64,000 bases of DNA, taken from positions 9,119 through 73,118 of the forward strand of contig JACABD010000008.1 in assembly GCA_013377075.1 (NCBI GenBank), written 5' to 3'. Shown here in pieces: positions 8,700-24,201 of the stretch. The stretch's first letter is position 1; each line of letters opens with the position of its first letter. The DNA is from Geobacteraceae bacterium (GTDB taxonomy: Bacteria; Desulfobacterota; Desulfuromonadia; Geobacterales; DSM-12255). The notes under the pieces are model-generated. The model was given only the letters and a program-made list of their open reading frames with translations, was not told the DNA's origin and searched no databases. The translations under genes were made by a program, and so were the position numbers.

Positions 8700-8742
8700 T
8701 AGTTTAACTTTATAGACGGATAGCTTAACATCCGCGAATCTG

Positions 8743-8778
8743 CCCCCCTGACCGATAGAGTCAGGGGGGTTCTTTTTT
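8743..8778 (+). terminator. Rho-independent terminator after the giant cytochrome
   Basis: 9-bp GC stem CCCCCCTGA (8743-8751) / TCAGGGGGG (8761-8769), 9-nt loop, then TTCTTTTTTGT. Confidence 0.85.
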
Positions 8779-8843
8779 GTGATATTGCCGATAGTGAAAA
8801 CATATGTATAATGCGAAATCTCAAAACTTCAGGAGGAATAAAT

Positions 8844-9380
8844 ATGGCAGAAGAAATGAAGGAGCCATGGCTTAACTATCTAGCGCTCACAACAGTCATA
8901 CTTGCAGTCTGTGCAACACTTTCTACGTTTAAGGGGGGTGGCTACTCGACACGTTCAGTTATGAGTCAGACCCAGGCATCAGATCAATGGGCCTTTTTCC
9001 AGTCAAAGAGTATCAAGAGTTATATTTATGAGATGCAAAAGGATAAGTTGGAGCTTGAGCTGAAGGCTGCAGGACCAAAAGTATCAGCTGAGCTATCCGG
9101 GGAGTATGTTAAGCGGATTGATGAATATGGTAAAAAAATTGTCAAATATGACAAGGAAAAAACCGAGATTCAGGCTGAAGCTAAAAAATTTGAAGAGATA
9201 AGAAATGATGCACAGCGTCATTCCCAGATTTTTGGTGTTGCGGTGATCTATCTGCAAATTGCCATTCTGCTTTCATCAATTGCGGCACTAATGAAGAAAA
9301 AAGTGCTCTGGGTAATGGGTGTTGCCATTGGTGCAGTCGGTATAGTTTATTTTGCCAATGGGTTCTTCTTATTTATGTAA
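8844..9380 (+). CDS. DUF4337-like membrane protein (coiled-coil flanked by N- and C-terminal TM segments)
   Basis: MAEEMKEPWLNYLALTTVILAVCATLSTFKGG...QASDQWAFFQSKSIK... resembles the DUF4337 family. AGGAGG lies 7 nt upstream of ATG 8844. Confidence 0.55.
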   Translation: MAEEMKEPWLNYLALTTVILAVCATLSTFKGGGYSTRSVMSQTQASDQWAFFQSKSIKSYIYEMQKDKLELELKAAGPKVSAELSGEYVKRIDEYGKKIVKYDKEKTEIQAEAKKFEEIRNDAQRHSQIFGVAVIYLQIAILLSSIAALMKKKVLWVMGVAIGAVGIVYFANGFFLFM

Positions 9381-9402
9381 ATTATTCGGAAATAAGGATT
9401 TC

Positions 9403-9442
9403 AATCCCCTCAAGCTTAATTGTTTGAGGGGATTTTTTATTT
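9403..9442 (+). terminator. Rho-independent terminator
   Basis: Stem AATCCCCTCAA (9403-9413) / TTGAGGGGATT (9424-9434) followed by TTTTATTT. Confidence 0.8.
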
Positions 9443-9650
9443 CGAGCGAGCGGTAAATGCATGCACTATGTAAGGCAGACAATAAACTTCTTAATATGCT
9501 GGGCAAGCAAAAACAAATAACTTTTTGGGCAAAAAGAAGCATATGTAAAATAAAATTCATGTAGTCAGTAGTAAGCAGAAATATTTCTGCAATGATTAAG
9601 CTAGTTGCCGGGGATGTATCACTTAAGGCATCTGTGAATTATTGCTTTTC

Positions 9651-9664
9651 TTGACTTGCGTCAT
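9651..9664 (+). promoter_or_regulatory. FNR/CRP-family-like box TTGAC-N4-GTCAT upstream of the nar cluster
   Basis: TTGACTTGCGTCAT matches 9 of 10 positions of a TTGAC-N4-GTCAA palindrome. It lies 124 nt upstream of the narC-like ATG. A CAAAAT -10-like hexamer at 9682-9687 has class II-type spacing. Confidence 0.35.
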
Positions 9665-9787: not shown

Positions 9788-10642
9788 ATGCAATATGTCC
9801 TGAAGGTCTGCCAAGTGGCAGTGGTCTCCATGTTTCTGATATCGGCTTCGATTGCCTTTAGCGATGACGGCAAGAGTCTGTTTGACAAGCAGTGCAGCAG
9901 TTGCCACTCCATTGGCGGAGGGGAGGGGGGAGGCCCTGATTTGAAAGGGGTTGGGGCCAAGCGGCCAGAGGCGTGGCTGTTGCGGGTCATTGTCGAGCCG
10001 GACAAGCTGACTGCCGATAAGGATTCGGTACAGGAGGGGCTGGTCAAGAAATACGGCTACGAGATGCCGAATGTGGGTGTCAGTCGCGATGATGCCAAAA
10101 AAATCATAGCTTATCTGAAGAAGAGCGGTGGTGGTGATGGGCAGGTAAATGGTGAAAAGAGTGCTCCGTCAGCTTCCGCGAAAGATGGTGCTGTTGTGAC
10201 TGCTGCGCCGGAAGCAGCAGTTGAGACTTCACCAAAGCTTGCCCTGCTGGTGTTGACACCGGAGCTTATTGCCAATGGCCGTGCCCTGTTCATTGGCGAA
10301 AAGAAATTTGCCAAGGGTGGGGCGCCATGCGCATCCTGTCATGCATTCGGATCTCAGGGGGTGGTAAGTGGCAATCTTGCAGCAGATCTCTCAGGAATGT
10401 ACGAAAAAATGGGGGAGCAGGGGGTGCGTGGTGTTCTCAAGGCGCTAAAATTCCCGACCATGAAAAAGATCTATGCTGATAAGTCGCTTACCGACGAGGA
10501 GATTACAGCACTAGTTGCATTTACCAAGGACGGAGCCGCTCAAAAAAGTCCGGCAGGTGGCGGCAGTTTCCCGCTGGCAGGTGTGGCTCTTCTGGTCTGT
10601 GCAATCATAGCTCTTAGCATCTACAAGAGGAGGATCGGCTGA
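9788..10642 (+). CDS. Membrane-anchored dihaem cytochrome c, NarC-like first gene of the nar cluster
   Basis: Signal peptide ...SMFLISASIAFS/DD and two CXXCH sites (CSSCH, CASCH) separated by an Ala/Gly/Ser-rich linker. C-terminal TM FPLAGVALLVCAIIALSIY. The stop overlaps the narG ATG (TGATG). Confidence 0.8.
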   Translation: MQYVLKVCQVAVVSMFLISASIAFSDDGKSLFDKQCSSCHSIGGGEGGGPDLKGVGAKRPEAWLLRVIVEPDKLTADKDSVQEGLVKKYGYEMPNVGVSRDDAKKIIAYLKKSGGGDGQVNGEKSAPSASAKDGAVVTAAPEAAVETSPKLALLVLTPELIANGRALFIGEKKFAKGGAPCASCHAFGSQGVVSGNLAADLSGMYEKMGEQGVRGVLKALKFPTMKKIYADKSLTDEEITALVAFTKDGAAQKSPAGGGSFPLAGVALLVCAIIALSIYKRRIG

Positions 10643-13600
10643 TGTCGCGAGATAGAATTAAAGACGAGGTATGTCCGGCAGGCCAGGAGTGGGAAGAGTT
10701 TTACCGGAACCGCTGGCAATATGACAAAGTGGTGCGTAGCGCCCACGGGGTTAACTGCACCGGCGCCTGTAGCTGGATGGTGCATGTAAAGGACGGCATT
10801 GTCGCCTGGGAGTTGCAAGCCAACGACTACCCACAGTTTAACGGTGACCTTCCCAATCATGAGCCCCGCGGCTGCCCCCGGGGAATCAGTTTTTCCTGGT
10901 ATCTCTACAGCCCGCTACGGGTCAAGCACCCCTACATGCGCGGTGTTCTGATCGATCTCTGGCGTCAGGCCAGAGAAACTCATGCCGATCCGGTCGAGGC
11001 GTGGAAGAGCATCGTCGAGAACCCCGAATCCCGCGAAAGCTATGTTACCAAGCGTGGCATGGGGGGCTTCCGCCGTGCGACCTGGGACGAAGCGAATGAG
11101 CTGATCGCAGCATCATCCCTCTATACAGCCAAGAAGCATGGCCCGGACCGGGTAATCGGCTTTTCTCCCATCCCGGCCATGTCCATGATCAGTTACGCTG
11201 CCGGAACTCGCTTTCTCCAGCTGCTAGGCGGCGTTGCCATGAGTTTCTACGACTGGTACTGCGACCTGCCACCGGCTTCGCCACAGGTCTGGGGTGAGCA
11301 GACCGATGTCAACGAATCGGCTGACTGGTATAACGCTTCCTACATCGTCCTCTGTGGATCAAATGTCCCCATGACCCGCACCCCGGATGCCCATTTCATG
11401 ACCGAGGCCCGCTATCGCGGCACCAAGGTAGTGGTCATGTCGCCGGATTATAATATGGCCTGCAAGTTTGCCGACGCCTGGATGCCAGTTGAGCAGGGGC
11501 ATGACGGCGCCTTCTGGATGGCGGTCAACCATGTCATCCTGACCGAATTCTACGCCAATCGCCAGGTCCCTTTCTTCGACGATTATGTGCGCAAGTACAC
11601 CGATCTGCCGTTTCTGGTCAAACTATCCGAGAAGGACGGCACCCTGCGTCAGGGAGAATTCCTGCGTGCCGCTGAACTGGAGAGGTGTGCAGATATTGAG
11701 AACGCCGACTGGACCCTTTGTGTCGGTGACAGTGCCGGTAACGTCCGCATCCCCCATGGCAGCCTCGGTTCTCGCTGGAGCAAGCAGGAGGGGAACTGGA
11801 ATCTGGACATGGTGGATATGGTGGATGGCGGCGACATCGACTGTGCCATGACCAATCTGGGGCAGGAGTCCAGGGCTGTCCGTTTTACCTTTGAAGCCGA
11901 CGGAGACATTGTCAGAAATGTGCCGATCCGGCGCGTCTTGACAAAGGATGGCGAGGTTATTGTCGCCACCGTGTTCGACCTGATGATGGCTCAGTTCGGC
12001 GTTCCGCGGGGACTTGACGGTGATTATCCGAAAGACTATCAGGATGACAAGCCATTCACTCCGGCGTGGCAGGAGAAATATACCGGCATAGCCGCCGAGA
12101 GCCTGATCACCATGGCTCGTGAATGGGCAGTGAACGGCGAGCAGAGTAGCGGTCGCAACATGATCATTGTCGGCGCTGGCATCAACCACTGGTACCACAA
12201 CGACCTGATCTACCGGGCCGCCATCACCGCTCTGATATTGACCGGCAGCGTTGGCAGGAACGGTGGTGGGCTCGGCCATTACGTCGGTCAGGAGAAGGTC
12301 GTGCCGCTTGCGCCCTGGACCAGTATCGCCATGGCCCAGGACTGGACAAAGGCTTCACGGCTGCAGAATACACCTAGTTTCTGGTACATGCACTCCGATC
12401 AATGGCGCTATGACCGTAACTTTGTCGACTATTTCAAACCGGAGACCGGCGAAAACATGCCGATGCACACCGCCGACTTTAATGCCAAAGCGGTCCGACT
12501 CGGCTGGCTCCCTTTCTCCCCGCACTTTAACGAGAGCCCGGTCCGTCTAATGGAGCAGGCTGCTGCAGCAGGTGCTACGACCGATGACGAGGTCCGCGCC
12601 TGGTTGGTCACGCGTCTCAAGAGCGGTGAGACACGTTTTGCCATTGAAGATCCGGATGGCGAAGGTAATTCGCCCAAGGTCTGGTTTATCTGGCGCGGCA
12701 ATGCCATCTCCTCAAGTGCCAAAGGGCATGAATTCTTCCTCAAGCATGTCATCGGCGCTCCTAACAGCAGCTTTACCGCCAGAGAGGCCGCCAAGGGGCA
12801 GGTCAAGGATATTGTCTGGCATGAGAAGGCGCCCACCGGAAAAATGGATCTGGTGGTTGACCTGAACTTCCGCATGGATACTTCGACCCTCTATTCTGAC
12901 ATCGTCCTCCCGGCAGCAACCTGGTACGAGAAATCCGATCTGAATACCACCGACATGCACTCATTTGTCAACTGCATGGACGCCGCTGTTGATCCCGCCT
13001 GGGAGTCCAAATCAGACTGGAATATCTTTGCCGGTATCGCCAAAAAGGTCAGTGAACTGGCACCAAATCACTTTCCAGCTCCGTTCAAGGATATTCTGGC
13101 GACACCGCTACTGCACGACACACCTGGTGAAATCGCCCAGCGGAGCGTCAAGGACTGGAAACTGGGGGAGTGTGAGGCAATCCCTGGCAAGACCATGCCG
13201 AATCTCCCCATAGTGGAGCGCGACTACGTCAACCTCTACAACCGTTTCATGTCGCTCGGGCCACACATCGGCCATCTCCATGCCCACGGAGTGAATTTTG
13301 AGGCTGAGGATGTGCACGAAAAGCTGCTCAAGGAGATGCCGACCCGTTTCTGGGGTGGCAAAACCTGCGTTGACCTAGAGGATGCCCGTATCGTCGCTGA
13401 CGTGCTGATGGCTTTTGCGCCGGAAACCAACGGCGAACTCGCACACCGCGCCTATCAGAACCTGGAGAAGCGGGTCGGCAAGCCGCTCAGCCAGATTTCA
13501 GCCGGTAACCGCGACTTCCGTGTCAGCTGGGAAGATATCACCCAGAAACCGCAGCGTTTTATCAGTACGCCGGTCTGGAGCGGCCTGGTCAACGAGAATC

Positions 13601-14217
13601 GACCTTATGCACCGTACACGCTGAACGTGGAGCATGGCGTCCCCTGGCGCACCCTCTCCGGCCGCCAGTCCCTTTATCTTGATCATCCTTATTACGGTGA
13701 GTTTCACGAGGGGCTGCCAACCTTCAAAGCCAAGCTTGACCCGGCTATACTCGATGAAACCGAGGGTGAAACCGGTCTGGTTCTGAATTTTCTTACGCCG
13801 CACGGTAAGTGGGGCATCCACTCCACTTACACCGATAACCAGCGGATGCTGACCCTTTCCCGGGGCGGCCCGGTCGTCTGGCTCAATCATGAAGACGCGG
13901 CCGGTGCCGGTATTGAAGACAATGAGGCGATTGAGGTCTTTAACGCCAACGGTGTTGTTACCAGCCGCGCCTGCGTTTCGTCACGAATTCCAAAAGGGGC
14001 TGCCGTTATGTATCACGCCCCGGAAAGAACCCTGGACATCAAAAAATCCCGCAAAAGCGGCAAGCGCGGCGGAGTGCACAACAGCCTCTCCCGCATCCGC
14101 CTGAAGCCGACGCTGATGCTTGGCGGTTATGCACAGTTCAGTTACTACTTCAACTACTGGGGGCCGACCGGCGTTAACCGGGATAGCTACGTGGTTGTCA
14201 GAAAGTTGAGGGGGTGA
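10642..14217 (+). CDS. narG: Respiratory nitrate reductase alpha subunit (Mo-bisMGD)
   Basis: 1191 aa. The N-terminal HGVNCTGACSW is the NarG-type FS0 cluster motif (H-x3-C-x3-C). No twin-arginine signal, so the active site is cytoplasmic. Followed by narHJI. Confidence 0.93.
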   Translation: MSRDRIKDEVCPAGQEWEEFYRNRWQYDKVVRSAHGVNCTGACSWMVHVKDGIVAWELQANDYPQFNGDLPNHEPRGCPRGISFSWYLYSPLRVKHPYMRGVLIDLWRQARETHADPVEAWKSIVENPESRESYVTKRGMGGFRRATWDEANELIAASSLYTAKKHGPDRVIGFSPIPAMSMISYAAGTRFLQLLGGVAMSFYDWYCDLPPASPQVWGEQTDVNESADWYNASYIVLCGSNVPMTRTPDAHFMTEARYRGTKVVVMSPDYNMACKFADAWMPVEQGHDGAFWMAVNHVILTEFYANRQVPFFDDYVRKYTDLPFLVKLSEKDGTLRQGEFLRAAELERCADIENADWTLCVGDSAGNVRIPHGSLGSRWSKQEGNWNLDMVDMVDGGDIDCAMTNLGQESRAVRFTFEADGDIVRNVPIRRVLTKDGEVIVATVFDLMMAQFGVPRGLDGDYPKDYQDDKPFTPAWQEKYTGIAAESLITMAREWAVNGEQSSGRNMIIVGAGINHWYHNDLIYRAAITALILTGSVGRNGGGLGHYVGQEKVVPLAPWTSIAMAQDWTKASRLQNTPSFWYMHSDQWRYDRNFVDYFKPETGENMPMHTADFNAKAVRLGWLPFSPHFNESPVRLMEQAAAAGATTDDEVRAWLVTRLKSGETRFAIEDPDGEGNSPKVWFIWRGNAISSSAKGHEFFLKHVIGAPNSSFTAREAAKGQVKDIVWHEKAPTGKMDLVVDLNFRMDTSTLYSDIVLPAATWYEKSDLNTTDMHSFVNCMDAAVDPAWESKSDWNIFAGIAKKVSELAPNHFPAPFKDILATPLLHDTPGEIAQRSVKDWKLGECEAIPGKTMPNLPIVERDYVNLYNRFMSLGPHIGHLHAHGVNFEAEDVHEKLLKEMPTRFWGGKTCVDLEDARIVADVLMAFAPETNGELAHRAYQNLEKRVGKPLSQISAGNRDFRVSWEDITQKPQRFISTPVWSGLVNENRPYAPYTLNVEHGVPWRTLSGRQSLYLDHPYYGEFHEGLPTFKAKLDPAILDETEGETGLVLNFLTPHGKWGIHSTYTDNQRMLTLSRGGPVVWLNHEDAAGAGIEDNEAIEVFNANGVVTSRACVSSRIPKGAAVMYHAPERTLDIKKSRKSGKRGGVHNSLSRIRLKPTLMLGGYAQFSYYFNYWGPTGVNRDSYVVVRKLRG

Positions 14218-14221
14218 AGCG

Positions 14222-15673
14222 ATGAACGTCAGAGCACAACTGGTAATGGTATTCAATCTTGACAAATGCATCGGCTGCCACGCCTGCAGCATCTCCTGCA
14301 AGAACATCTGGACCGACAGGAAGGGTGCCGAGTACATGTGGTGGAACAACGTCGAAACCAAGCCTGGCGTCGGTTATCCGAAAAACTGGGAAAATCAGGA
14401 CAGATTCAAGGGTGGCTGGCGGCGTGATGACGGCAAGCTGAAGTTGCGGGCTCTGGGGAAAGGGCCGACACTTCTCAATATGTTCTTCCAGCCCAACATG
14501 CCGAAACTCGATGATTACTACGAGCCGTTTGACTTCGATTACAGCAATCTCTACAAGGCGCCTCCCGGCAGCGACCAGCCGGTGGCTGAGGCAATTTCAC
14601 AAATCTCCGGCAAGCGGATGGAAGAGATCAAGAACGGCCCCAACTGGGATGACGACCTCTCCGGCTCGCAGATCTATGCCGTCCAGGATGTTAATCTCGA
14701 AGACAGCACCCTGGTCGCTGACTACGGTCGCATGTTCATGCAGTATCTCCCCCGTATCTGCAATCACTGCCTCAATCCGGCCTGCGTCGCTTCCTGCCCG
14801 TCCAGAGCCATCTACAAGCGGGGTGAAGACGGTGTCGTTCTGGTGGATCAGGAGGTCTGCAAGGGGTGGCGGTTCTGCACCAGCGCCTGTCCATACAAGA
14901 AAGTCTATTTCAACTGGCAGAGCGGCAAGGCGGAAAAGTGTATCTTCTGCTTCCCCCGCACCGAGTCCGGCCAGTGCAACGCCTGCGCCCACAGCTGCGT
15001 CGGCAGGATCCGTCATGTCGGCGTGCTGCTCTATGATGCTGATCGGGTTGAAGCGGCGCTCTTAAAAGAGGATGACCAGTTGGTAGCGGCCCATCGCGAC
15101 GTTATTCTTGACCCCCACGATCCGCAGGTCCGGGAAGCCGCCCGCAAGAATGGCGTTAGCGATCAGTGGCTTGAGGCAGCCGACAAATCCCCGGTATACG
15201 CTCTGGTGAAGGAGTTTGCCGTGGCCCTGCCGCTGCACCCTGAATTCAGGACCATGCCGATGGCCTACTATATTCCGTCCCTCTCCCCGGTTATTTCCAG
15301 CGGCGGAGATCTCCATACGCTGGCCGACCATGGTACTTTCCCGCTGCTGGAAACGATGCGTGCGCCGATCAGCTTCCTGGCAAGCCTTCTCTCAGGCGGC
15401 AACCAGGAGATAATTGCCGAGGTGCTGCGCAAGCAGATCGCCCTGCGGCTCTTCAAACGGGCCGAAAATCTCGGCCAGTCAATTGAATCGTCCATTCTGA
15501 AAAATGCCGGTCTGGATGAGGCTGGTGCCAACAAGCTCTACCGCCTCTTCACCATCGCCCCCTATCGTGAACGCTTCATTGTACCGACCCAACAGCGGGA
15601 GGTACAGAATCCGGAAGAGCGCAAGGGCTCCAGCGGCTTTGGTATTCTGAAGAAGACCAGGAGGGCGAAGTGA
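14222..15673 (+). CDS. narH: Respiratory nitrate reductase beta subunit (Fe-S)
   Basis: Four Cys clusters: CIGCHACSISCK, CNHCLNPACVASCP, CKGWRFCTSACP and CIFCFPR...CAHSC. Confidence 0.93.
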   Translation: MNVRAQLVMVFNLDKCIGCHACSISCKNIWTDRKGAEYMWWNNVETKPGVGYPKNWENQDRFKGGWRRDDGKLKLRALGKGPTLLNMFFQPNMPKLDDYYEPFDFDYSNLYKAPPGSDQPVAEAISQISGKRMEEIKNGPNWDDDLSGSQIYAVQDVNLEDSTLVADYGRMFMQYLPRICNHCLNPACVASCPSRAIYKRGEDGVVLVDQEVCKGWRFCTSACPYKKVYFNWQSGKAEKCIFCFPRTESGQCNACAHSCVGRIRHVGVLLYDADRVEAALLKEDDQLVAAHRDVILDPHDPQVREAARKNGVSDQWLEAADKSPVYALVKEFAVALPLHPEFRTMPMAYYIPSLSPVISSGGDLHTLADHGTFPLLETMRAPISFLASLLSGGNQEIIAEVLRKQIALRLFKRAENLGQSIESSILKNAGLDEAGANKLYRLFTIAPYRERFIVPTQQREVQNPEERKGSSGFGILKKTRRAK

Positions 15674-16218
15674 CCAGAGCCGACAGCTACGAAGCCCTCT
15701 CGCGGATGATAGATTATCCGGCGGAGAAAGCCGGACTGCAGAGTGACTGCACTATGGTGAGTGGCTTCATGAAGCAGCAGAAGATGAATGTTAGGCTGCT
15801 TTCGGATTTTGCTGATTTTGCCGAGACAGCAACTCTGGCTGCTCTTCAGGAGGAGTACGTCGCCACCTTTGATTTCAATCCGGCCACAGCCCCCTATCTC
15901 GGCCATCACCTGTTTGGTGACAATCAAAAGAAGGGGGGGTACATGATCATGCTGAAGCAGGAGTACCAGCGGTGCGGCTACAGTCCTGAAGGGGTCGAAC
16001 TGCCTGATCACCTCTCCGTGGTGCTGGGATTCCTGGCCTATCTCGCCCGTCACGAAGGTGGAGTTCAAAGGCAGAAATTCATTGCCGATTCTGTTTTGCC
16101 CGGGGTTGAACGTCTGCTTGCCGCCTTTGGTGAGAGGCAGGAGTCGCCGTGGAAAACTCTGGTTGAAACAGCAAGGCTGCTCTGTGCTGAAGATTGCAAG
16201 GAGGTGCATTCATGTTAG
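15670..16218 (+). CDS. narJ: Nitrate reductase maturation chaperone (NarJ/TorD-type)
   Basis: 182-aa cytosolic protein between narH and narI. The GTG start overlaps the narH stop (GTGA). Position and size fit NarJ; sequence similarity was judged only loosely by eye. Confidence 0.65.
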   Translation: MTRADSYEALSRMIDYPAEKAGLQSDCTMVSGFMKQQKMNVRLLSDFADFAETATLAALQEEYVATFDFNPATAPYLGHHLFGDNQKKGGYMIMLKQEYQRCGYSPEGVELPDHLSVVLGFLAYLARHEGGVQRQKFIADSVLPGVERLLAAFGERQESPWKTLVETARLLCAEDCKEVHSC

Positions 16219-16898
16219 ACAGTTTCATTTTTGTCGTTATGCCCTACGCCGCCCTGGCGCTAATGATCTTTGTTACACCCTACCGCTATTTCAGCAACCG
16301 GCTGACCTGGACAGCCTATTCAACCCAATTTCTGGAGCGGGATAAACTCTTCTGGGGTTCCGTGCCGTGGCATTTCGGTATTCTTTTAGTGCTTCTTGGC
16401 CACTTTGCCGGTGTTGTCTGTCCCCATGGCATGGCCAGGTTACTGGCCAACCAGCAGATGCTGGTGCTCCTTGAGAGCATCGGCCTTGCCGCAGGTCTGC
16501 TTGCGCTCCTTGGCAGCGTCATGCTGCTCTTGAGGCGGATAAATGATGGGACTTTGAAGCGGGTCACCTTTTGTAGTGACTGGGTGCTCCTCTATCTGCT
16601 CATCATGCAGGCAGCCACAGGGATCTATATCGCCACATTCATGCGCTGGGGCTCGGTCTGGTATCTGCATACCGCAGTGCCGTATTTTTACTCGCTCCTC
16701 TCATTTAAGCCGGAGCTTGGCTATGTAGCGGACTTCCCGCTGATCTTCAAACTGCACTCGGCCGGAGCCTTCCTGATACTGGCGCTGCTCCCCTTTACCA
16801 AGCTGGTGCATCTGCTCTTCTGGCCGCTGGCATTTCTGAGAGATCCACCGATTCTTTACCGCTGGCGGTCGCAGCGGGGCAACAGCAGGGATTTTTAA
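16212..16898 (+). CDS. narI: Respiratory nitrate reductase gamma subunit (dihaem b, membrane)
   Basis: 5 TM segments with His pairs PWHFGILLVLLGHF and KLHSAGAFLILALLPFTKLVH. AGGAGG lies 8 nt upstream of ATG 16212, preferred over the TTG at 16194. Confidence 0.85.
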   Translation: MLDSFIFVVMPYAALALMIFVTPYRYFSNRLTWTAYSTQFLERDKLFWGSVPWHFGILLVLLGHFAGVVCPHGMARLLANQQMLVLLESIGLAAGLLALLGSVMLLLRRINDGTLKRVTFCSDWVLLYLLIMQAATGIYIATFMRWGSVWYLHTAVPYFYSLLSFKPELGYVADFPLIFKLHSAGAFLILALLPFTKLVHLLFWPLAFLRDPPILYRWRSQRGNSRDF

Positions 16899-16925
16899 GG
16901 ATCTACCTCAAGGAGGAGTTTGCAG

Positions 16926-18446
16926 ATGCTGGAAGTCGCAACCTGGAAATCCCATAAAAACCTCTTTTTAAACACCCTGGCCTTTACGGTCTGCTTTGCC
17001 GCCTGGATGTTCAACGGTGTACTGGTGACCTTTCTGGTGGACAATCAGGTCTTCAACTGGGGGCCGGTGCAGATCGGCTGGCTGTTCGGCATTCCGGTTC
17101 TGACCGGCTCCATATTTCGCCTGCCTGCCGGGATGCTGACCGATAAGTTCGGCGGGAAGCCTGTTTACGGGACGCTGCTGATTCTCTGCGCCATCCCGAT
17201 GTATCTGCTCTCCAAGGCTGACGGATTTACCTCCTTTGCCCTTTGCAGCTTCGGCTTTGGCATGGCAGGAGTCAGTTTTTCCATCGGCATTGCCTTTAGC
17301 TCTGTCTGGTATCCCCGCGAGCGGCAGGGGACGGCGCTCGGTATTTTCGGCGCAGGCAACGCAGGTGCGGCGCTGACGACGCTGCTCGCCCCGACCATAC
17401 TCAACAAGCTGACCAATAACGGCGCCAATATCGAGGGGTGGCGTGATCTGCCGGTCTATTACGCCCTGATACTTGCATCCATGGGGGTCATTTTCTTCAT
17501 CTTCAGCGACAACAGGAAACCGGCCAGCTCCAACAAAACGTTTCTACAGATGCTGACACCGCTCAAACATCTGCGCGTCTGGCGCTTTGGCCTCTACTAT
17601 TTCTTGGTATTCGGCTGTTTTGTGGCCTTCTCCCAGTGGCTCGTCCCCTATTTTGTCAATGTCTATTACCTGCCGCTGGTCACTGCCGGCCTGTTCGCCT
17701 CCATGTTCAGCCTCCCCTCCGGTGTAATCCGCGCCCTTGGAGGATGGATGTCCGACAAGTTCGGCGGACGGCAGATCATGTACTGGGTACTTGGGAGTTC
17801 GACGGTCATCAGCTTGATGGTGATGATTCCTAAAATGGAGATTCAATCCCCCGGACGGGGGGTCATGGCCAAGCGTGCCGGAGTGGTGCAGACGGTGACA
17901 GACGGCTCAGTCGTGGTGAAGGAGGTTAAACTCACCGCGGAAGTTCTCGGCGATCAGACTTACAAACTAAAGGCAAAACCCGAAGTTCTGCAAAGCTTTG
18001 ACGACCAGGTTCTCGTCCTCCCCGGCAAGCAGACCTGGCAGGAGCCTGTGGTGAAGCCGGGGCAGACGGTCAAGAAGAAGGAGCTGTTGGCCAAAGGGGT
18101 AACCAGAATCTATTTTCAGGCCAATGTCTGGATATTTGCCGTATTGGTTCTGCTGCTCGGCACCATCTGGGGGATTGGCAAGGCGGCGGTCTATAAACTG
18201 ATCCCTGATTACTTCCCTGAGGAGGTAGGTGTTGTCGGCGGCATGGTGGGGGTGCTTGGCGGTCTGGGCGGTTTTGTCTGTCCCATCGTCTTCGGCTACC
18301 TGCTTGAATGGACCGGCCTCTGGACCAGTTGCTGGATATTCATGCTGTTTCTCTCCATTGCCTGCCTGGTTTCGCTGCACTATGTTGTACAAAAAATGAT
18401 GAACGATAAACATCCCGGAGATATGCGGGTGTTTGAAAATAACTGA
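16926..18446 (+). CDS. narK: NarK-type MFS nitrate/nitrite transporter with about 95-aa inserted loop domain
   Basis: 12 predicted TM segments and MFS motifs RLPAGMLTDKFGGK and GGWMSDKFGGR. AGGAGG lies 9 nt upstream of ATG 16926. A hydrophilic insert lies between TM9 and TM10. Confidence 0.85.
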   Translation: MLEVATWKSHKNLFLNTLAFTVCFAAWMFNGVLVTFLVDNQVFNWGPVQIGWLFGIPVLTGSIFRLPAGMLTDKFGGKPVYGTLLILCAIPMYLLSKADGFTSFALCSFGFGMAGVSFSIGIAFSSVWYPRERQGTALGIFGAGNAGAALTTLLAPTILNKLTNNGANIEGWRDLPVYYALILASMGVIFFIFSDNRKPASSNKTFLQMLTPLKHLRVWRFGLYYFLVFGCFVAFSQWLVPYFVNVYYLPLVTAGLFASMFSLPSGVIRALGGWMSDKFGGRQIMYWVLGSSTVISLMVMIPKMEIQSPGRGVMAKRAGVVQTVTDGSVVVKEVKLTAEVLGDQTYKLKAKPEVLQSFDDQVLVLPGKQTWQEPVVKPGQTVKKKELLAKGVTRIYFQANVWIFAVLVLLLGTIWGIGKAAVYKLIPDYFPEEVGVVGGMVGVLGGLGGFVCPIVFGYLLEWTGLWTSCWIFMLFLSIACLVSLHYVVQKMMNDKHPGDMRVFENN

Positions 18447-18466
18447 CGGTAGATGAGGAGGCAACA

Positions 18467-19840
18467 ATGGCACGAGTATTAACGATATGGAATCCGGAAG
18501 ACAAGGAATTCTGGGAAAAGGAAGGCAAAGCCATTGCCAATCGCAACCTCTGGATTTCCATCCCGGCGCTGCTACTGGCCTTTTCAGTCTGGATGGTCTG
18601 GTCTATGGTGGTAGTAAAATTACCATTGATCGGTTTCAAATTCGACACTAACCAACTTTTTTGGCTGGCCGCAGTACCGGCGCTCTCTGGTGCTACCTTG
18701 CGTATTTTTTATTCATTTATGGTGCCTATCTTTGGTGGGCGCAGGTGGACCGCAATCTCCACTGCATCTTTGCTCATTCCTGCCATCGGTATCGGTTTTG
18801 CCGTGCGGGAACAGACTACCAGTTACACCATCATGCTTATCCTGGCGCTTCTTTGCGGTTTGGGGGGCGGCAACTTCTCTTCCAGTATGGCTAACATAAG
18901 TTTTTTCTTTCCCAAAGCCCAAAAGGGGACTGCGCTCGGTCTTAATGCCGGTCTAGGTAATCTGGGAGTTTCAGTGATGCAGTTTTTGATCCCTCTGGCA
19001 ATTACCGCCGGAGTCCTTGGTGGGGTCTGCGGTGATCCGCAAGTCTGCGTTGTCAAAGGAGTGACTACCAATCTTTGGCTACAGAACGCCGGCTTCATCT
19101 GGGTACCGTTTATTGTCGCCGCCACCATAGCCGCCTGGTTCGGTATGAATGATATCGCCAGCGCCAAGGCTTCATTCAAGGACCAAGCAGTGATATTCAG
19201 ACGCAAGCATAACTGGTTAATGTGCTGGCTTTATCTCGGTACATTCGGTTCGTTCATCGGCTTTGCCGCAGGGTTTGCCCTTCTCACCAAGAAGCTTTTT
19301 CCGGAGATAGATCCAACCCAGTACGCTTTTCTCGGGCCGCTGGTCGGCGCCATAGCCCGCCCCATCGGAGGTTGGATCTCTGACAAACTTGGCGGTGCAC
19401 GAGTCACCTTCTGGACCTTTATTGCCATGGTGCTGGCAGTGTGCGGTGTGCTGGCATTCATCCCTCACGGAGGACATGGTGGCAACTTCTTTGGTTTTCT
19501 CGCGATGTTCCTGATTCTTTTTACTTTGACCGGCGTCGGTAATGCTTCAACTTTTAGAATGATACCAGTTATTTACATAACTGAACACCAACGAGCCGTT
19601 GAAGGGCGCAACGAAGTTCAGGTTAATATGGATGCGGCCAAGGAGGCGGCCGCTGCGCTCGGTTTTGCAGGCGCCCTCGGGGCCTATGGCGGCTTCTTTA
19701 TCCCCAAAAGCTTTGGCACCTCCATTGCCGCCACTGGTGGCCCGGATGCCGCCCTCTACGGGTTTATAATATTTTACGCCAGTTGCATTGTTATGACCTG
19801 GTGGTACTATTCACGCAAAAATGCAGAGATGCCCTGTTAA
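18467..19840 (+). CDS. narK: NarK-type MFS nitrate/nitrite transporter (second copy)
   Basis: 457 aa, 12 TM segments, with FGGRRWT and GGWISDKLGG motifs. Immediately follows the first narK. Confidence 0.88.
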   Translation: MARVLTIWNPEDKEFWEKEGKAIANRNLWISIPALLLAFSVWMVWSMVVVKLPLIGFKFDTNQLFWLAAVPALSGATLRIFYSFMVPIFGGRRWTAISTASLLIPAIGIGFAVREQTTSYTIMLILALLCGLGGGNFSSSMANISFFFPKAQKGTALGLNAGLGNLGVSVMQFLIPLAITAGVLGGVCGDPQVCVVKGVTTNLWLQNAGFIWVPFIVAATIAAWFGMNDIASAKASFKDQAVIFRRKHNWLMCWLYLGTFGSFIGFAAGFALLTKKLFPEIDPTQYAFLGPLVGAIARPIGGWISDKLGGARVTFWTFIAMVLAVCGVLAFIPHGGHGGNFFGFLAMFLILFTLTGVGNASTFRMIPVIYITEHQRAVEGRNEVQVNMDAAKEAAAALGFAGALGAYGGFFIPKSFGTSIAATGGPDAALYGFIIFYASCIVMTWWYYSRKNAEMPC

Positions 19841-19897
19841 TTTCTGTAGATGCAGGTAACTCACCCAAGCCATAACCACAACAAGGAGACATTAAGC

Positions 19898-20170
19898 ATG
19901 AGAAAAACCGTTTTTATTCTGTTAGCCATAATTTATTCAGCTGGAACAGCCCTGGCTGCCGACATTATTGAGCTCCCTGCATCCATGGGTAAGGTCAGTT
20001 TCCCCCACAAAATGCATCAGCAGATGCTGAAGGATTGCAAAAAATGCCACGAAAAAGCTCCCGGCAAGATTGCCGACCTAGGTAAAGATTGGGCCCACAA
20101 GACCTGCAAGGGGTGTCACACCGAGATGAAGAAGGGGCCAACAGGTTGCAAGGATTGCCACAAAAAATAG
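19898..20170 (+). CDS. Periplasmic trihaem cytochrome c7 (PpcA family)
   Basis: The mature sequence ADIIELPASMGKVSFPHKMHQQMLKDCKKCHEKAPGKIADLGKDWAHKTCKGCHTEMKKGPTGCKDCHKK aligns by eye with Geobacter PpcA. It has three CXXCH sites. AAGGAG lies upstream of ATG 19898. Confidence 0.9.
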   Translation: MRKTVFILLAIIYSAGTALAADIIELPASMGKVSFPHKMHQQMLKDCKKCHEKAPGKIADLGKDWAHKTCKGCHTEMKKGPTGCKDCHKK

Positions 20171-20179
20171 GAGATACCC

Positions 20180-20620
20180 ATGGATTGCATGTCGCTAACC
20201 TCGCTGAGCGAGAAGATTGTACAGGAAAACAGTGATGCCATAGTGTTTTCGGATAAAGAAGGGGTAATTCGCCTCTGGAATAGGGGGGCGGAGGCTATGT
20301 TTGGCTATAGTGCTTTAGAGGCCACTGGCCAGAGCCTGGATCTGTTCATCCCGGAAAACCTGCGCGAGCGACACTGGGAAGGGTATCACAAAGTCATGGC
20401 GAGCGGTGTGACCCGCTACGGCTCAGAGCTCCTGGCTGCGCCCGGCATCTGCAAGGATGGCACAAGACTCTCCCTTGAGTTCAGCATGGTGATTGTCCGC
20501 GGCGAAGATGGCGCTGTTCTTGGAACCGGTGCAATCATTCGAGATATTACCGCCCGGTTCAAGAAGGAGAAGGAGATGAAAGCTAGACTCAAGGAGCTTG
20601 AGGAGAAGTTAGCCGGTTGA
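20180..20620 (+). CDS. Stand-alone PAS-domain protein
   Basis: PAS S-box-like DAIVFSDKEGVIRLWNRGAEAMFGYSALEATGQSL...GAIIRDITARFK. No output domain. AGGAGA lies 5 nt upstream of the ATG. Confidence 0.75.
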   Translation: MDCMSLTSLSEKIVQENSDAIVFSDKEGVIRLWNRGAEAMFGYSALEATGQSLDLFIPENLRERHWEGYHKVMASGVTRYGSELLAAPGICKDGTRLSLEFSMVIVRGEDGAVLGTGAIIRDITARFKKEKEMKARLKELEEKLAG

Positions 20621-20645: not shown

Positions 20646-20685
20646 ATAGAAAGGCAGCTTCGAGAGAGGCTGCCTTTCTATTTTG
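20646..20685. terminator. Bidirectional hairpin terminator between convergent genes
   Basis: 13-bp stem ATAGAAAGGCAGC (20646-20658) / GCTGCCTTTCTAT (20669-20681), followed by TTTGG on the + strand. Confidence 0.7.
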
Positions 20686-20791: not shown

Positions 20792-21718
20792 TTAGCCCCA
20801 TCGCCAGAGAGCAAGGATCAGAATGATGATAAGGACAATTGTAAGGTTCATGTATGCCATGAAGTAAAAGACCCTCTCATGCGTCGCCATTTTTTGTGGT
20901 CCATCGACGATGAGTAGTCCGACCTCTCTCATTGCGGACACTTTGTCCGGGCCATGGGGAGCCTGTTTCAGTGCGTCTGTCAGGTCGATACCGGCGTTGT
21001 GTCTGCCCATATGTACACCCTGTTTCCAGAGGTTGCTTTGGGTTGCGTCGTATACTTTTCCTTCAAAAGAAAAATATGCTGGGCGCCCTTCTTTTCCGTC
21101 ACACCCTGCCAGTTCCTCCGGTGTTAAATCGTCTGTTGTTGTCAGCTTTAGCGCCCCCTTCCGTTTCGCCTTAAGACGCGGGCCGATCATGGTGATGACG
21201 ATTACGGCCGATATTACCATGATCAGATAGAGGGAAACCTTTATGATCAGGAGGATACCAAAGTGACTGTGAATCAGGGTGTCGACAGAGTTAATCCGAA
21301 AGATGGCAAGGACTGCGCCTGTGACCCCCATGATGATCATTGAGGCGATGCCCACCCTCAGTTCGCCTCGCGGCAGGCCACTGGCAGCATATGCCGGTTT
21401 GAGGACCAGGTGCACATAGAGGATTGTTCCGAACCAGAAAATGGCGGTCAGAAAATGGATGTAACCGACCAGAAGTCGGAGCAGTTTGGCAACATTAACG
21501 GTTTTGTGACTTTCTGTCACGGAGGGACCGGAAGCGGTAAATGTCTTGCCGACCGCCGTCAGTTCGCCACCACCAGCCGGGTCAAGATGGCAGGTAGCGC
21601 ATGTCTGTCCGGTCTGCTTGGCATACTCCTCTGTAGCACGGGCATATTGTGACGAACTGAGTATGAATGTCATGAAAAGAAATATGCCGACGAAAAGTGC
21701 TGAAATGTGCTTTTGCAT
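20792..21718 (-). CDS. Fusion protein: monohaem cytochrome c + CopD-like TM domain + cytochrome b5-like haem/steroid-binding domain
   Basis: Signal peptide then CATCH. TM helices include IHFLTAIFWFGTILYVHLVL (CopD-like). b5-like segment LTPEELAGCDGKEGRPAYFSFEGKVYDATQSNLWKQGVHMGRHNAGIDLTDALKQAPHG. Final TM segment. GGAAGGA lies upstream of the ATG. Confidence 0.7.
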   Translation of the reverse strand: MQKHISALFVGIFLFMTFILSSSQYARATEEYAKQTGQTCATCHLDPAGGGELTAVGKTFTASGPSVTESHKTVNVAKLLRLLVGYIHFLTAIFWFGTILYVHLVLKPAYAASGLPRGELRVGIASMIIMGVTGAVLAIFRINSVDTLIHSHFGILLIIKVSLYLIMVISAVIVITMIGPRLKAKRKGALKLTTTDDLTPEELAGCDGKEGRPAYFSFEGKVYDATQSNLWKQGVHMGRHNAGIDLTDALKQAPHGPDKVSAMREVGLLIVDGPQKMATHERVFYFMAYMNLTIVLIIILILALWRWG

Positions 21719-22121
21719 TGGTTCCTTCCGTGTTGCCTTTTAAGTAGTGAGTAACGCAATGTTTTACAGCTGTTTTTGCTTTGCAAGCAGTAGAGAACAA
21801 GATCATCGCAGCTCTCAAGAACAAGATATTGTTCTCCAGGTGGACATGCTTGTGGAGATCGTTCTCAAACTCTTCAAGTTTTTTATATGTAAGGATGAAA
21901 GTATTGCAGGCACCGTCAGAAATGGCGTATCCATTTGCGAGATGACGAATTTCGTGGATTGCGTCGCCAATCTCTTCATGTTCGCGATGGAGTCTGAGAA
22001 GGGAGGCGCTGATTGTTTCCCGATCCTTGTCATTCAGCGCAGTGCCTGATGTTGTGGACGCATCGACTCTTTTGATAGCCTGGAACAATACCTCTTCTTC
22101 CCCCTTTAGATGTCCAACCAT
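21582..22121 (-). pseudogene. Truncated or degraded RIC (YtfE/ScdA-type di-iron Fe-S repair) gene, C-terminal half only
   Basis: GHLKGEEEVLF...HREHEEIGDAIHEI...ACNTF...DLHKHVHLENNILF matches the second half of YtfE-type hemerythrin domains. The ScdA_N half is missing. No SD precedes ATG 22121, whereas a strong SD+ATG at 22164 is one frame off. The tail runs 137 nt into the next gene. Confidence 0.5.
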
Positions 22122-22418: not shown

Positions 22419-22432
22419 TTGATTTGGGTCAA
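22419..22432. promoter_or_regulatory. FNR/DNR-type palindrome TTGAT-N4-GTCAA in the divergent promoter region
   Basis: TTGATTTGGGTCAA sits within the extended symmetry AATTTGATTTGGGTCAAATT, 165 nt upstream of the nitrite reductase ATG. A TAAAAG -10-like hexamer lies at 22454-22459. Confidence 0.45.
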
Positions 22433-22596: not shown

Positions 22597-24201
22597 ATGA
22601 AAAAAAGTATGTTAACAGCGCTTGTGGTCGGTTGCACAGCTGTGGCTCTCGGTGTTCCGGCGGCACTGACAGCTGCAAAGGCTAAACCGGCAGCAAAAGT
22701 GATCAATGACGGTAGGGCGAAGTGCTATGAGTGTCACGAAGAAGTAAAGGCGATGAAGGAGGGGTCAAAGCATGCCAAACTGGCCTGTACGGTCTGTCAT
22801 GACAAGTTAGCTGCCCACATGGATGATCCGGAGAAGAACAAGCCTGTGACCATTATCGATCAGGCTCTCTGCGGTAAGTGCCACAAAAATCAGTATGAGA
22901 GCTTTTACAAGGTTTCAACCGAAGGTGGCGCAAGGAAGGAGAAAGGTAACCCGACCGGTCGTTCTCCGATGCAGGACAAACTTCTTGCCGGACACGGCTT
23001 CACTTTTGAGCATAACGAGCCACGCGGACATGCTTTTATGGTAACCGACCAGTTCGTTGTCGACCGCTTCCAGGGTGGACGTTATCAGTATAAGGATAGG
23101 TGGAAGGGTGTGAATAGCACCGGCAAGACCTGGGATGTCCTTGTTGACAAGGGTGTGGATACAAAGATTCCTGAAAGCGCCATGGCTGGCAATGCAACCT
23201 GCATCCAGTGCAAGACCTCTGACCATATCCTTAAATGGAAATTCATGGGAGACAAGGATCCGAAGGCGAAGTTTGACCGGACAACCAATGTGAACGAGAT
23301 TGCCAAAGAGACCAATAATCCGGTTGGCTGCATTCACTGTCATGACCCGCATGGCACCCAGCCTCGTATTGTCCGTGACGCCCTTATTCAGGCTGTTGAG
23401 CGCGACAGAGCTAATAATATATTTGCTAAAAATGGCAAGACTGATCTGAAGGTTCAGGACTTCAGGGGCTTCAGGAAGATCGGTGTGATGGAAAAAGTTG
23501 ATTCTCGCATGATGTGTGCCCAGTGCCATGTGGAGTACGCTTGCAATGAGGGTAGTCAGTGGACTGATACAAACAAAGTCAAATATGCTGATCAGCGTAC
23601 CAACCATATGCCTCTAAAAAATGGTAAGGATCTGCTGGCACATTACAAAAGGCTTGATTTCTACGACTTCAAGCATGCCGTTACTGGTGCCCGTTTGATA
23701 AAAATGCAGCACCCTGAGGCCGAGGCCTTTGCCGGAAGTGTTCATGATAAGGCCGGTGTGCAGTGTCACCAGTGTCATATGCCGAAGATGAAGGGCAAGG
23801 ACGGCAAGATGTTCTCTGCGCACAACGTCTCAAGACCAATCAACAGTGTCAAGGAGTCCTGCCTCGGCTGTCACCCGAAAGACAGCGCAGATGCCAAGAA
23901 GTACGAGATTGAGACCATCAGGAACTACATAAAAGGGAAGATGCGCAAGTCCGAGTACTGGATCGGCAAGCTGATTGACACCTATGCAGTTGCGAAGCGT
24001 GCCGGAGTGCCGGAAGAGACCCTTGCCAAGGCACGGGAGAAGCATGAAGAAGCCCATGTTCTCTGGGAGTTCTGGACAGCCGAGAATTCAGATGGTTTCC
24101 ACAATCCTGATCTTGCCCGCGAAACTTTGACCGGTGCCATCAAGGCAGGTAAAGACGGCGTGAAGATTCTCGAAGATGCCATGGCAGCACCGAAAAACTG
24201 A
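22597..24201 (+). CDS. Octahaem cytochrome c nitrite reductase (NrfA-related, TvNiR/ONR-like)
   Basis: Signal peptide, then 7 CXXCH plus one CXXCK. Order is CYECH, CTVCH, CGKCH, CIQCK, CIHCH, CAQCH, CHQCH, CLGCH. CXXCK as the fourth motif is the Lys-ligated catalytic haem signature of NrfA/ONR enzymes. Confidence 0.8.
   Translation: MKKSMLTALVVGCTAVALGVPAALTAAKAKPAAKVINDGRAKCYECHEEVKAMKEGSKHAKLACTVCHDKLAAHMDDPEKNKPVTIIDQALCGKCHKNQYESFYKVSTEGGARKEKGNPTGRSPMQDKLLAGHGFTFEHNEPRGHAFMVTDQFVVDRFQGGRYQYKDRWKGVNSTGKTWDVLVDKGVDTKIPESAMAGNATCIQCKTSDHILKWKFMGDKDPKAKFDRTTNVNEIAKETNNPVGCIHCHDPHGTQPRIVRDALIQAVERDRANNIFAKNGKTDLKVQDFRGFRKIGVMEKVDSRMMCAQCHVEYACNEGSQWTDTNKVKYADQRTNHMPLKNGKDLLAHYKRLDFYDFKHAVTGARLIKMQHPEAEAFAGSVHDKAGVQCHQCHMPKMKGKDGKMFSAHNVSRPINSVKESCLGCHPKDSADAKKYEIETIRNYIKGKMRKSEYWIGKLIDTYAVAKRAGVPEETLAKAREKHEEAHVLWEFWTAENSDGFHNPDLARETLTGAIKAGKDGVKILEDAMAAPKN

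Follow-up and report, generated by a model that had tools for sequence, protein, structure and literature searches.

A cluster of nine genes in an uncultured Geobacteraceae bacterium is best explained, and quite probably so, as a NarC-type nitrate reductase (Nar) operon in which the dihaem cytochrome NarC links the quinol and cytochrome pools, with a trihaem cytochrome c7 as its partner, a PAS protein as sensor, and two transporters. The cluster was analysed within a window of 64,000 nt (the whole stretch of DNA under study), and it bears on how extracellular or periplasmic electrons are coupled to nitrate reduction in Geobacter-type bacteria.

Organization of the nar operon

Every gene named in the preliminary description was recovered in place on the + strand, with the starts of narI and the c7 gene corrected. 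The features are as follows.

9403–9434, + strand: Rho-independent terminator of the DUF4337 gene (13-pair stem, then a T-run), the 5′ border of the nar unit
9651–9664, + strand: candidate DNR-like box of the CRP/FNR family, TTGACttgcGTCAT, some 130 nt before narC
9788–10642, + strand: narC, dihaem class-I cytochrome c, predicted to be periplasm-facing with a C-terminal membrane anchor (two CxxCH motifs, homology to Thermus NarC)
10642–14217, + strand: narG, catalytic Mo-bisMGD subunit, cytoplasm-facing (TIGR01580, 1541 bits, cut-off 1084)
14222–15673, + strand: narH, iron-sulfur subunit (TIGR01660, 650 bits, cut-off 524)
15670–16218, + strand: narJ, assembly chaperone (TIGR00684, 77 bits, cut-off 59)
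16212–16898, + strand: narI, dihaem-b membrane subunit, quinol oxidase (TIGR00351, 122 bits, cut-off 106)
16920–18446, + strand: narK1-like MFS transporter (MFS_1; NarK-family 188 bits, cut-off 312; start codon, TTG, uncertain)
18467–19840, + strand: narK2, nitrate/nitrite transporter of the NarK/NarU type (TIGR00886, 334 bits, cut-off 312; PRK15034, 522 bits)
19898–20170, + strand: PpcF-like periplasmic trihaem cytochrome c7 (NF043011, 145 bits, cut-off 120; three CxxCH motifs)
20180–20620, + strand: stand-alone PAS protein, PAS core and long C-terminal helix, candidate haem sensor (PAS families)
20646–20685, no strand assigned: closing hairpin, strong bidirectional terminator
22597–24201: octahaem nitrite reductase, about 2 kb downstream of the operon

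The nine genes lie closely packed on the + strand between the two strong terminators, the second of which was read straight from the letters (AATAGAAAGGCAGC...GCTGCCTTTCTATTTT) and is followed by genes on the opposite strand. Their order is narC, narG, narH, narJ, narI, narK1-like, narK2, the PpcA-family trihaem c7 gene and the stand-alone PAS gene. The tight couplings reported earlier were confirmed: narC and narG have one base in common (TGATG), narH and narJ overlap by 4 nt (GTGA), and narJ and narI overlap by 7 nt, given a narI start at ATG 16212, which has GGAGG in front of it and is the most likely start rather than TTG 16194. Dozens of genomes show the same gene order, which puts the arrangement well beyond chance. 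We infer that the region is co-transcribed as one operon; the sequencing runs found to contain it were DNA metagenomes.

The candidate box upstream of narC has one mismatch to TTGAC-N4-GTCAA, and a second similar FNR/DNR-like box was found at 22419–22432, upstream of the nitrite reductase gene. The window holds four such boxes against 2.1 expected, a count that is not significant (18 of 100 shuffles reach four), and it is only their placement that is suggestive of a role. A sigma-70 scan of the 350-nt nar leader gave no convincing promoter; overall, the scan returned 8 sites against 10.7 expected.

The core enzyme

Judged by its residues, NarGHI retains its cofactor ligands and is a Nar of the ordinary kind, which faces the cytoplasm and oxidises quinol. 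NarG carries the NarG-type FS0 motif (H35-x3-C39-x3-C43...C78) and shares 58% identity with Thermus NarG, and its N-terminus (MSRDRIKDEVCPAGQEWEEF) contains no twin-arginine motif with a hydrophobic stretch after it, in keeping with the earlier statement that the protein lacks a Tat signal. A DMSO-reductase type II model scored 617 bits on NarG, under its cut-off of 985, and a Tat-exported pNar or an Nxr-type enzyme was rejected on these two grounds. In NarI, the haem-b ligands H54, H64, H182 and H200 are invariant with those of E. coli and Thermus NarI. The preliminary description had proposed an electron route different from the quinol–NarI paradigm. A cytochrome connection reaching beyond the quinol pool stands, as proposed in 2009 for Geobacter (PMC2700814) with Thermus genetics in support (PMC7694296), but the departure from the paradigm was overstated, because all four haem-b histidines are kept; the quinol route is thus retained, with NarC as an addition to it and not a replacement.

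An RIC-type iron-sulfur (nitrosative-stress) repair gene was also observed at the locus. Together, the operon, the octahaem nitrite reductase and the RIC-type gene would allow nitrate reduction to ammonium. The reverse activity, that of a nitrite oxidoreductase whose electrons leave through NarC to cytochrome c, was floated in 2009 for G. metallireducens (PMC2700814), and the Thermus review points to a similar cluster in Nitrobacter (PMC7694296). We regard this as highly improbable, since the transporters, the nitrite-to-ammonium reductase and the nitrosative-stress repair gene at the locus fit nitrate respiration, G. metallireducens itself respires nitrate to ammonium (PMC2700814, PMC6275270), and no link to a high-potential terminal oxidase was seen in the window.

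The dihaem cytochrome NarC

NarC comprises 284 aa, with CSSCH at 36–40 and CASCH at 181–185, a signal-like hydrophobic helix at the N-terminus, and a second hydrophobic helix, with KRRIG after it, at the C-terminus. Periplasmic exposure and membrane anchoring are predicted, and in the AF2 model a disordered linker (118–147) and a helix at 261–283 accompany two cytochrome c domains. The earlier reading hung on homology to Thermus NarC, and the two proteins are homologous: BLASTP aligned residues 26–245 with T. thermophilus NarC (33% identity, E 1e-20), both CxxCH haem sites are colinear, and the signal peptide and C-terminal anchor are alike. Its best plasmid-collection matches by tblastn were 13 Thermus megaplasmids, and the matched gene adjoins narG on the 5′ side in narCGHJIKT of strain NAR1. 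Across 24 homologues spanning at least 8 phyla-level groups, C36, C39, H40, M93, P94, C181, C184, H185, F222 and M225 are invariant; NarC is accordingly described here as carrying two predicted His/Met class-I cytochrome c domains, with M93 and M225 as candidate Met ligands. The invariance of haem motifs and candidate ligands across distant phyla suggests that a redox function is under selection.

A Foldseek search with the NarC model returned generic class-I cytochromes c and one Kuenenia dihaem protein, and nothing else. No solved NarC–Nar complex was among the structures. QcrC, the dihaem cytochrome cc of the actinobacterial bc1 complex, likewise combines two class-I cytochrome c domains with a C-terminal transmembrane anchor and gave weak sequence matches over the second domain and anchor (NF050122, E 2.7e-9; PDB QcrC chains, E ~3e-4). 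However, NarC scored 37 bits against the QcrC family, far below the cut-off of 200, and the partner differs, being NarI for NarC and a Rieske/cytochrome b complex for QcrC; membership of the QcrC family was rejected, and QcrC is an architectural analogue only.

Distribution of NarC and the NarG tree

We found 217 NarC relatives, and in the best loci found (80 of 80) the gene lay directly upstream of narG. Among 41 related genomes, narG occurred in 11 and NarC in those same 11, so that NarC-type Nar, the form in every Nar-bearing relative sampled, is no thermophile oddity. It was also present in Archaeoglobi, Bacteroidota, Rhodothermota, Chloroflexota and Actinomycetota MAGs. The Thermus review describes NarC as absent from mesophile Nar operons (PMC7694296), which the 217 relatives contradict. 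In an unrooted NarG tree, a branch with SH-aLRT 100 separated 21 NarC-linked sequences, Thermus and the window among them, from a classical side of four sequences only, and identity to the window NarG was 52–90% for the NarC-linked and 47–50% for the classical sequences. The comparison of phylogeny and synteny proposed earlier thus came out in favour of the Thermus connection, with the same gene order in relatives, and on these sequences the NarG of NarC-type Nar makes up a separate clade, which also has a distinct operon order.

Transporters and the variable 3′ tail

The first transporter is classed by sequence as a divergent NarK1-like protein because its 188 bits fall short of the NarK-family cut-off of 312. 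It contains an additional segment of about 70–95 aa and aligns with the Thermus transporter at 13–308 and 381–506, with a gap in between.

The extension of the cluster by a PpcA-family trihaem cytochrome and a PAS protein, noted earlier, was borne out by the family matches listed above. The c7 gene begins 58 nt past narK2, most likely at ATG 19898 behind AAGGAG, and would encode a 90-aa precursor whose closest solved structures are PpcA and PpcE (~1e-24). It is without Lys7 and Lys9 of PpcA, as is PpcF, which has an E_app of −56 mV (PMC6275270). An aromatic residue at position 6 was stressed for PpcF (PMC6275270); the mature window protein has Leu at this position and the nar-linked copy of G. 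hydrogenophilus has Phe. The nar-linked copy was the best match to the window c7 in four of five other genomes, and an N-terminal (E/D)(L/F)PASMGKV signature occurred in all six nar-linked copies plus one unlinked copy. A tree of 29 c7 paralogues did not resolve a nar-linked lineage (15 of 26 inner branches below 80% support, the label needing four changes), and does not establish a c7 lineage dedicated to nar.

The PAS protein looks FixL-type; it is small and probably uses a haem to sense gas or redox state, tuning the system. Among solved structures, phmmer gave the haem-PAS domains of FixL and DosP as its closest relatives and aligned the proximal His (RERH65 with RSRH of FixL); the top Foldseek matches of its AF2 model (pLDDT 85.5) include DosP as well as the haem-PAS domains of FixL and FG214. 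In 12 full-length orthologues, H65 and the motif IPENLRxRHW(E/D)GY are invariant and K/R at +6 is retained. No arginine aligned in the phmmer alignment with the FixL distal position (Arg220 of BjFixL). A LOV protein was rejected in the absence of a conserved cysteine, although short-LOV proteins are structural neighbours.

Among about 53 loci with a transporter match, c7 followed the transporters in about 8 and the PAS gene in about 13, and neither was present in 24 of 31 informative loci. Since each occurs in a minority of loci, NarC-type Nar as a class must be able to do without c7 and without PAS; the gene content indicates a 3′ tail into which either c7 or a FixL-like PAS gene has been drawn repeatedly. 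This variability, along with an IS element between narK2 and c7 in one genome (G004), is what one would expect if NarC were an assembly and anchoring factor only, carrying no physiological electron flux, and if c7 and PAS were loose 3′ passengers, and the clearest phenotype of narC loss in Thermus is indeed immature, soluble NarG (PMC7694296). We nevertheless consider such a purely structural role unlikely, because the NarC haem motifs and candidate Met ligands do not vary across distant phyla, genetic work in Thermus points to nitrite and NO reductases as recipients of electrons (PMC7694296), and the window c7 finds its best match in the nar-linked copy of four of the five other genomes.

Direction of electron flow

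Extrapolating from the Thermus work, NarC would dock on NarI, be needed for a mature membrane-bound enzyme, and wire the NarI haems to periplasmic c-type cytochromes, with the Nar complex as the point where the pools of menaquinol and periplasmic cytochromes meet. Gene linkage and the published properties of PpcF suggest that the co-encoded c7 is the soluble partner of NarC. A link between NarC and PpcF was proposed in 2009 (PMC2700814), and we found no genetic test of it in the literature searched.

Which way electrons run through NarC and c7 is something we infer, and the inward direction appears more likely: reduced c7 (about −56 mV for PpcF) would pass electrons to NarC and on through NarI, NarH and NarG to nitrate, so that periplasmic or extracellular electrons would cross the membrane electrogenically, bypassing quinone. 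Outward flow may also occur; menaquinol would then feed electrons into NarI, and NarC and c7 would hand them on to the nearby octahaem nitrite reductase, an enzyme without NrfH. His/Met class-I haems are usually of high potential, and if this holds for NarC, outward transfer to c7 would be uphill. A bolder form of the inward route, to which we give limited credence, is that NarC and c7 constitute a quinone-independent, electrogenic "periplasmic cytochrome c:nitrate oxidoreductase" fed by outside electrons (Fe(II), humics, cathodes, partner cells) and gated by the haem-PAS protein (O2/NO); if true, energy would be conserved without the menaquinone pool while nitrate is reduced in the cytoplasm.

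The opposite emphasis would make the complex mainly a bc1-like quinol:cytochrome c oxidoreductase delivering menaquinol electrons via NarI, NarC and c7 to the octahaem nitrite reductase. Several observations lean this way: under repression of complex III, Thermus needs NarC to respire nitrite and NO (PMC7694296); no NrfH was found adjacent to the octahaem nitrite reductase or above cut-off in the bacterium's own genome, and of the 10 Geobacterales genomes with Nar that were tested, just 2 had an NrfH exceeding the cut-off; similar FNR-like boxes precede the nar and nitrite reductase units; and NarC weakly resembles the dihaem, C-terminally anchored QcrC. Still, other quinol:cytochrome c modules exist in Geobacteraceae, and the same genome encodes a NapC/NirT-type protein of 491 aa that resembles ImcH. 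It would moreover be thermodynamically unattractive for a His/Met haem c to pass electrons to c7 (−56 mV) and for these to continue to the low-potential haems of the nitrite reductase. G. metallireducens, we presume, also has NrfH, which counts against this function. It has narC and ppcF too (PMC2700814). A mainly outward, bc1-like function therefore seems improbable to us, and a Nar joined through NarC to both pools is the reading that we prefer.

Comparison with known systems

Classical NarGHJI systems (E. coli, Paracoccus, Cupriavidus, Rhodococcus) have the same four core subunits and cofactor ligands as the window, with a cytoplasmic active site and a NarI dihaem-b quinol oxidase with four conserved histidines, but their operons are without narC and place narK upstream of narG, not downstream.

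Closer is T. thermophilus NAR1, whose annotated megaplasmid, as the preliminary description had it, gives the window order of narC, narG, narH, narJ, narI and two MFS transporters. The two differ after the transporters, where Thermus has DUF2249 genes (the drpAB position) and the window has c7 and PAS; only Thermus has the dnrST regulators and the Nrc NADH dehydrogenase nearby. In Thermus, narC mutants contain soluble, immature NarG, and NarC interacts with NarI in two-hybrid assays (PMC7694296).

Also close is G. metallireducens, for which the earlier statement that the nar operons begin with a dihaem cytochrome gene proved correct: it heads both, with ppcF after narK-2 (PMC2700814). The intact operon, Gmet_0328-0337, comprises narC, narGYJI, narK-1, narK-2, ppcF, moeA-2 and moaA-2 (PMC2700814), and thus shares with the window the leading dihaem cytochrome, narGHJI, both narK genes and the PpcA-family trihaem cytochrome; moeA-2/moaA-2 form its tail, whereas the window has the stand-alone PAS gene in their place, then the terminator. 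Transcriptome changes of Gmet_0328 (listed as narC) and Gmet_0335 (ppcF) ran in parallel (5.80/2.62/2.50-fold and 5.52/2.95/2.64-fold, respectively; PMC10989804). The related G. hydrogenophilus, close to G. metallireducens, has the same order (locus L070). Collectively, the layout of the window operon is real but not new, having been described in Thermus and G. metallireducens, and although the window offers no new principle, the comparison defines the gene set of interest for Geobacter.

Organization of the nar operon

Nine co-directional ORFs with minimal spacing were found between a strong terminator and a strong hairpin. The genes 3' of narC were identified with curated family models with cut-offs, and the features are listed below in 5' to 3' order.

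9403-9434: strong terminator, 3' of a DUF4337 gene
9788-10642, plus strand: narC, dihaem cytochrome c
plus strand: narG (TIGR01580, 1541 bits against a cut-off of 1084)
plus strand: narH (650 bits, cut-off 524)
plus strand: narJ (77 bits, cut-off 59)
plus strand: narI (122 bits, cut-off 106)
16920-18446, plus strand: divergent NarK1-like MFS protein (188 bits, under the NarK-family cut-off of 312)
plus strand: narK2, NarK/NarU-type transporter (334 bits, cut-off 312)
19898-20170, plus strand: Geobacter-type cytochrome c7 (NF043011, 145 bits, cut-off 120)
20180-20620, plus strand: PAS-only protein (family models)
20646-20685: strong bidirectional hairpin, the 3' border of the nine-ORF unit

The tight junctions quoted in the preliminary description are real: TGATG is common to narC and narG, GTGA is common to narH and narJ, and narJ overlaps narI by 7 nt provided that translation of narI begins at ATG 16212, which has GGAGG in front. 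For c7, the most likely start codon is ATG 19898, preceded by AAGGAG. NarG, as had been stated, has no Tat signal; it carries no twin-arginine leader, and the FS0 ligands of the NarG type, H35, C39, C43 and C78, are present. The NarK1-like transporter comprises 508 aa and could be aligned to the Thermus transporter only over residues 13-308 and 381-506, indicating an extra segment of approximately 70-95 aa.

The dihaem cytochrome is a NarC homologue

The first ORF encodes a 284-aa protein with CxxCH motifs at residues 36-40 and 181-185, a signal-like segment at the N-terminus and a hydrophobic C-terminal helix closing in KRRIG. When a plasmid collection was searched by tblastn, the best matches were 13 Thermus thermophilus megaplasmids, and in Thermus NAR1 the matched gene lies directly 5' of narG, in narCGHJI plus two transporters, the operon treated in the Thermus literature (PMC7694296). 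Pairwise BLASTP with Thermus NarC gave 33% identity (E 1e-20, residues 26-245), with the two haem sites and the motifs GGAPCxxCH and FPxM colinear between the proteins, which confirmed the suspected homology. When 24 homologues of highly diverse lineages were aligned, C36, C39, H40, M93, P94, C181, C184, H185, F222 and M225 were invariant, a pattern that fits two predicted His/Met-ligated class-I haems. The AlphaFold model (pLDDT 82) comprised helical cytochrome c domains at 27-113 and 158-252, a disordered linker at 118-147 and a terminal helix at 261-283. Foldseek searches with this model returned generic class-I cytochromes c only, which suggests that no NarC structure has been solved. Judged from sequence, the dihaem protein is NarC.

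In the related genome G032 (locus L021, G032:C1, 2789-3268), the gene directly upstream of narG encodes a truncated, monohaem NarC of 159 aa, in which the second haem domain and the C-terminal anchor are all that is retained. This form suggests that NarC has its core in the membrane-proximal domain.

Distribution of the narC-narG arrangement

When prokaryotes were scanned with one genome for each species, 217 relatives of the cytochrome were obtained. Among the best 80 of these 217, most belonged to Geobacteraceae (Geobacter, Geomonas, Geomobilimonas), the others coming from Archaeoglobi/Geoglobus, Spirochaetota, Actinomycetota, Dehalococcoidia, Rhodothermales and Bacteroidota MAGs, and the cytochrome gene lay immediately 5' of narG in all 80. 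Within the same order, narG was present in 11 of 41 related genomes and the cytochrome in the identical 11, including G032 with its monohaem form. Classical operons (E. coli, Paracoccus, Rhodococcus, Cupriavidus), in contrast, have no narC and carry narK upstream of narG. In an unrooted NarG tree with a small classical sample, 21 NarC-linked sequences were split from the 4 classical ones by a branch with an SH-aLRT of 100; the window NarG shared 58% identity with the Thermus enzyme and 47-50% with classical enzymes.

The same narC-narGHJI cluster was also observed in archaeal iron reducers (Archaeoglobi/Geoglobus MAGs, loci L081, L083 and L085), whose NarG was 65-68% identical. Archaeoglobi were the sister of Geobacteraceae in the NarG tree, and this placement suggests inter-domain transfer between iron-reducing lineages. 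The patchy occurrence of the operon among relatives (11/41) fits lateral spread, and the GC content of the narGHJI segment (window 10001-16000; 55-57%, against 43-50% in the flanks) is consistent with lateral acquisition.

In a close relative (L012, G012:C353), narG and narH are separated by a gene (7192-9495) for a Tn5-type transposase whose N-terminal domain is DruA-like. In a same-genus genome (L013, G004:C7), narG is split between two frames near residue 1005 (5858-5860), which reflects a frameshift or else an error in the assembly, and a DDE transposase gene (12426-13574) lies between narK2 and the c7-PAS pair.

The variable operon tail

The window c7 has three CxxCH motifs and matched the PpcA and PpcE structures at approximately 1e-24; like PpcF, the nar-linked c7 of G. 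metallireducens, it differs from PpcA in lacking Lys7 and Lys9 (PMC6275270). Five more c7 paralogues (39-61% identity) are encoded in its own genome. Five other genomes carry a nar-linked c7, and in four of them this copy was the best match to the window c7, the exception being G044, in which an unlinked copy scored slightly higher; branching in the c7 tree was not resolved. Among approximately 53 loci with a transporter match, about 8 had c7 and about 13 had the PAS gene 3' of the transporters. In 31 loci the sequence extended 900 nt or more past the transporters, and 24 of these contained neither gene. Whereas NarC is constant, c7 and PAS are therefore optional.

The stand-alone PAS protein (146 aa) is encoded repeatedly at the 3' end of nar operons in Geobacteraceae, and the motif IPENLRxRHW(E/D)GY was invariant in 12 orthologues (loci L013, L014, L016, L019, L021, L036, L039, L044, L045, L050, L069 and L078). 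Its closest solved relatives were the haem-PAS domains of FixL and DosP. H65, within the invariant motif, aligned with the FixL proximal histidine, with K/R six residues on at the position of FixL Arg206, and no arginine aligned at the FixL distal position. The model (pLDDT 85.5) consisted of a PAS core and a long C-terminal helix, resembling short-LOV proteins; the orthologues have no conserved cysteine. Based on alignment and model, the PAS protein is a candidate haem-based sensor of O2, NO or redox state. Searches aimed at other subjects returned no literature on it.

Possible routes of electron flow

All four haem-b histidines are kept in NarI, which argues that menaquinol oxidation is retained, with NarC added to it. 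From its homology to the Thermus protein (PMC7694296), NarC is expected to bind NarI on the periplasmic face, to be needed for the mature membrane-bound enzyme and to exchange electrons with the NarI haems on one side and periplasmic partners on the other. In the window organism we favour an inward flow, in which electrons would pass from c7 through NarC and Nar to nitrate, because a c7 potential near -56 mV is more negative than is typical of a His/Met haem c and much more negative than that of the nitrate/nitrite couple; this path would still be electrogenic. The value is that of purified PpcF, whose E_app is less negative than those of PpcA-E (PMC6275270).

A 1785-aa multihaem cytochrome is encoded upstream of the operon, and the following features lie downstream.

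20792-22121, minus strand: CopD-like membrane protein and RIC/hemerythrin iron-sulfur repair gene, separating the nar operon from the nitrite reductase gene
22597-24201: octahaem nitrite reductase (seven CxxCH and one CxxCK, CIQCK)

Since the listed CopD-like and RIC ORFs overlap at 21582-21718, one of their starts is probably misplaced. The main alternative to inward flow is an outward flow to this nitrite reductase, which has no NrfH beside it; none scored above the family cut-off in its own 95%-complete genome, and of 10 Nar-bearing relatives tested, just 2 had a bona fide NrfH. Similar TTGAC-N4-GTCAA-like boxes occur upstream of the nar operon as well as of the nitrite reductase gene, at a count not above chance. 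A purely structural role of NarC is a second alternative. The preliminary description, which had proposed an electron input or maturation route distinct from the classical quinol-NarI one, was correct in its observation and essentially right in its interpretation.

Comparison with the G. metallireducens operon

In G. metallireducens, a dihaem cytochrome gene is followed by narGYJI, narK-1, narK-2, ppcF and moeA-2/moaA-2, and Aklujkar et al. proposed that the cytochromes link Nar to non-menaquinol electron carriers, extracellular donors included (PMC2700814). A 2022 transcriptome table names Gmet_0328 narC, with fold changes nearly identical to those of ppcF (PMC10989804). The system is therefore of a known kind, its cytochrome-wiring hypothesis already in print, and the window provides a further example of the described operon type in an uncultured relative, differing solely in the tail, where a PAS gene and a terminator stand in place of moeA/moaA.
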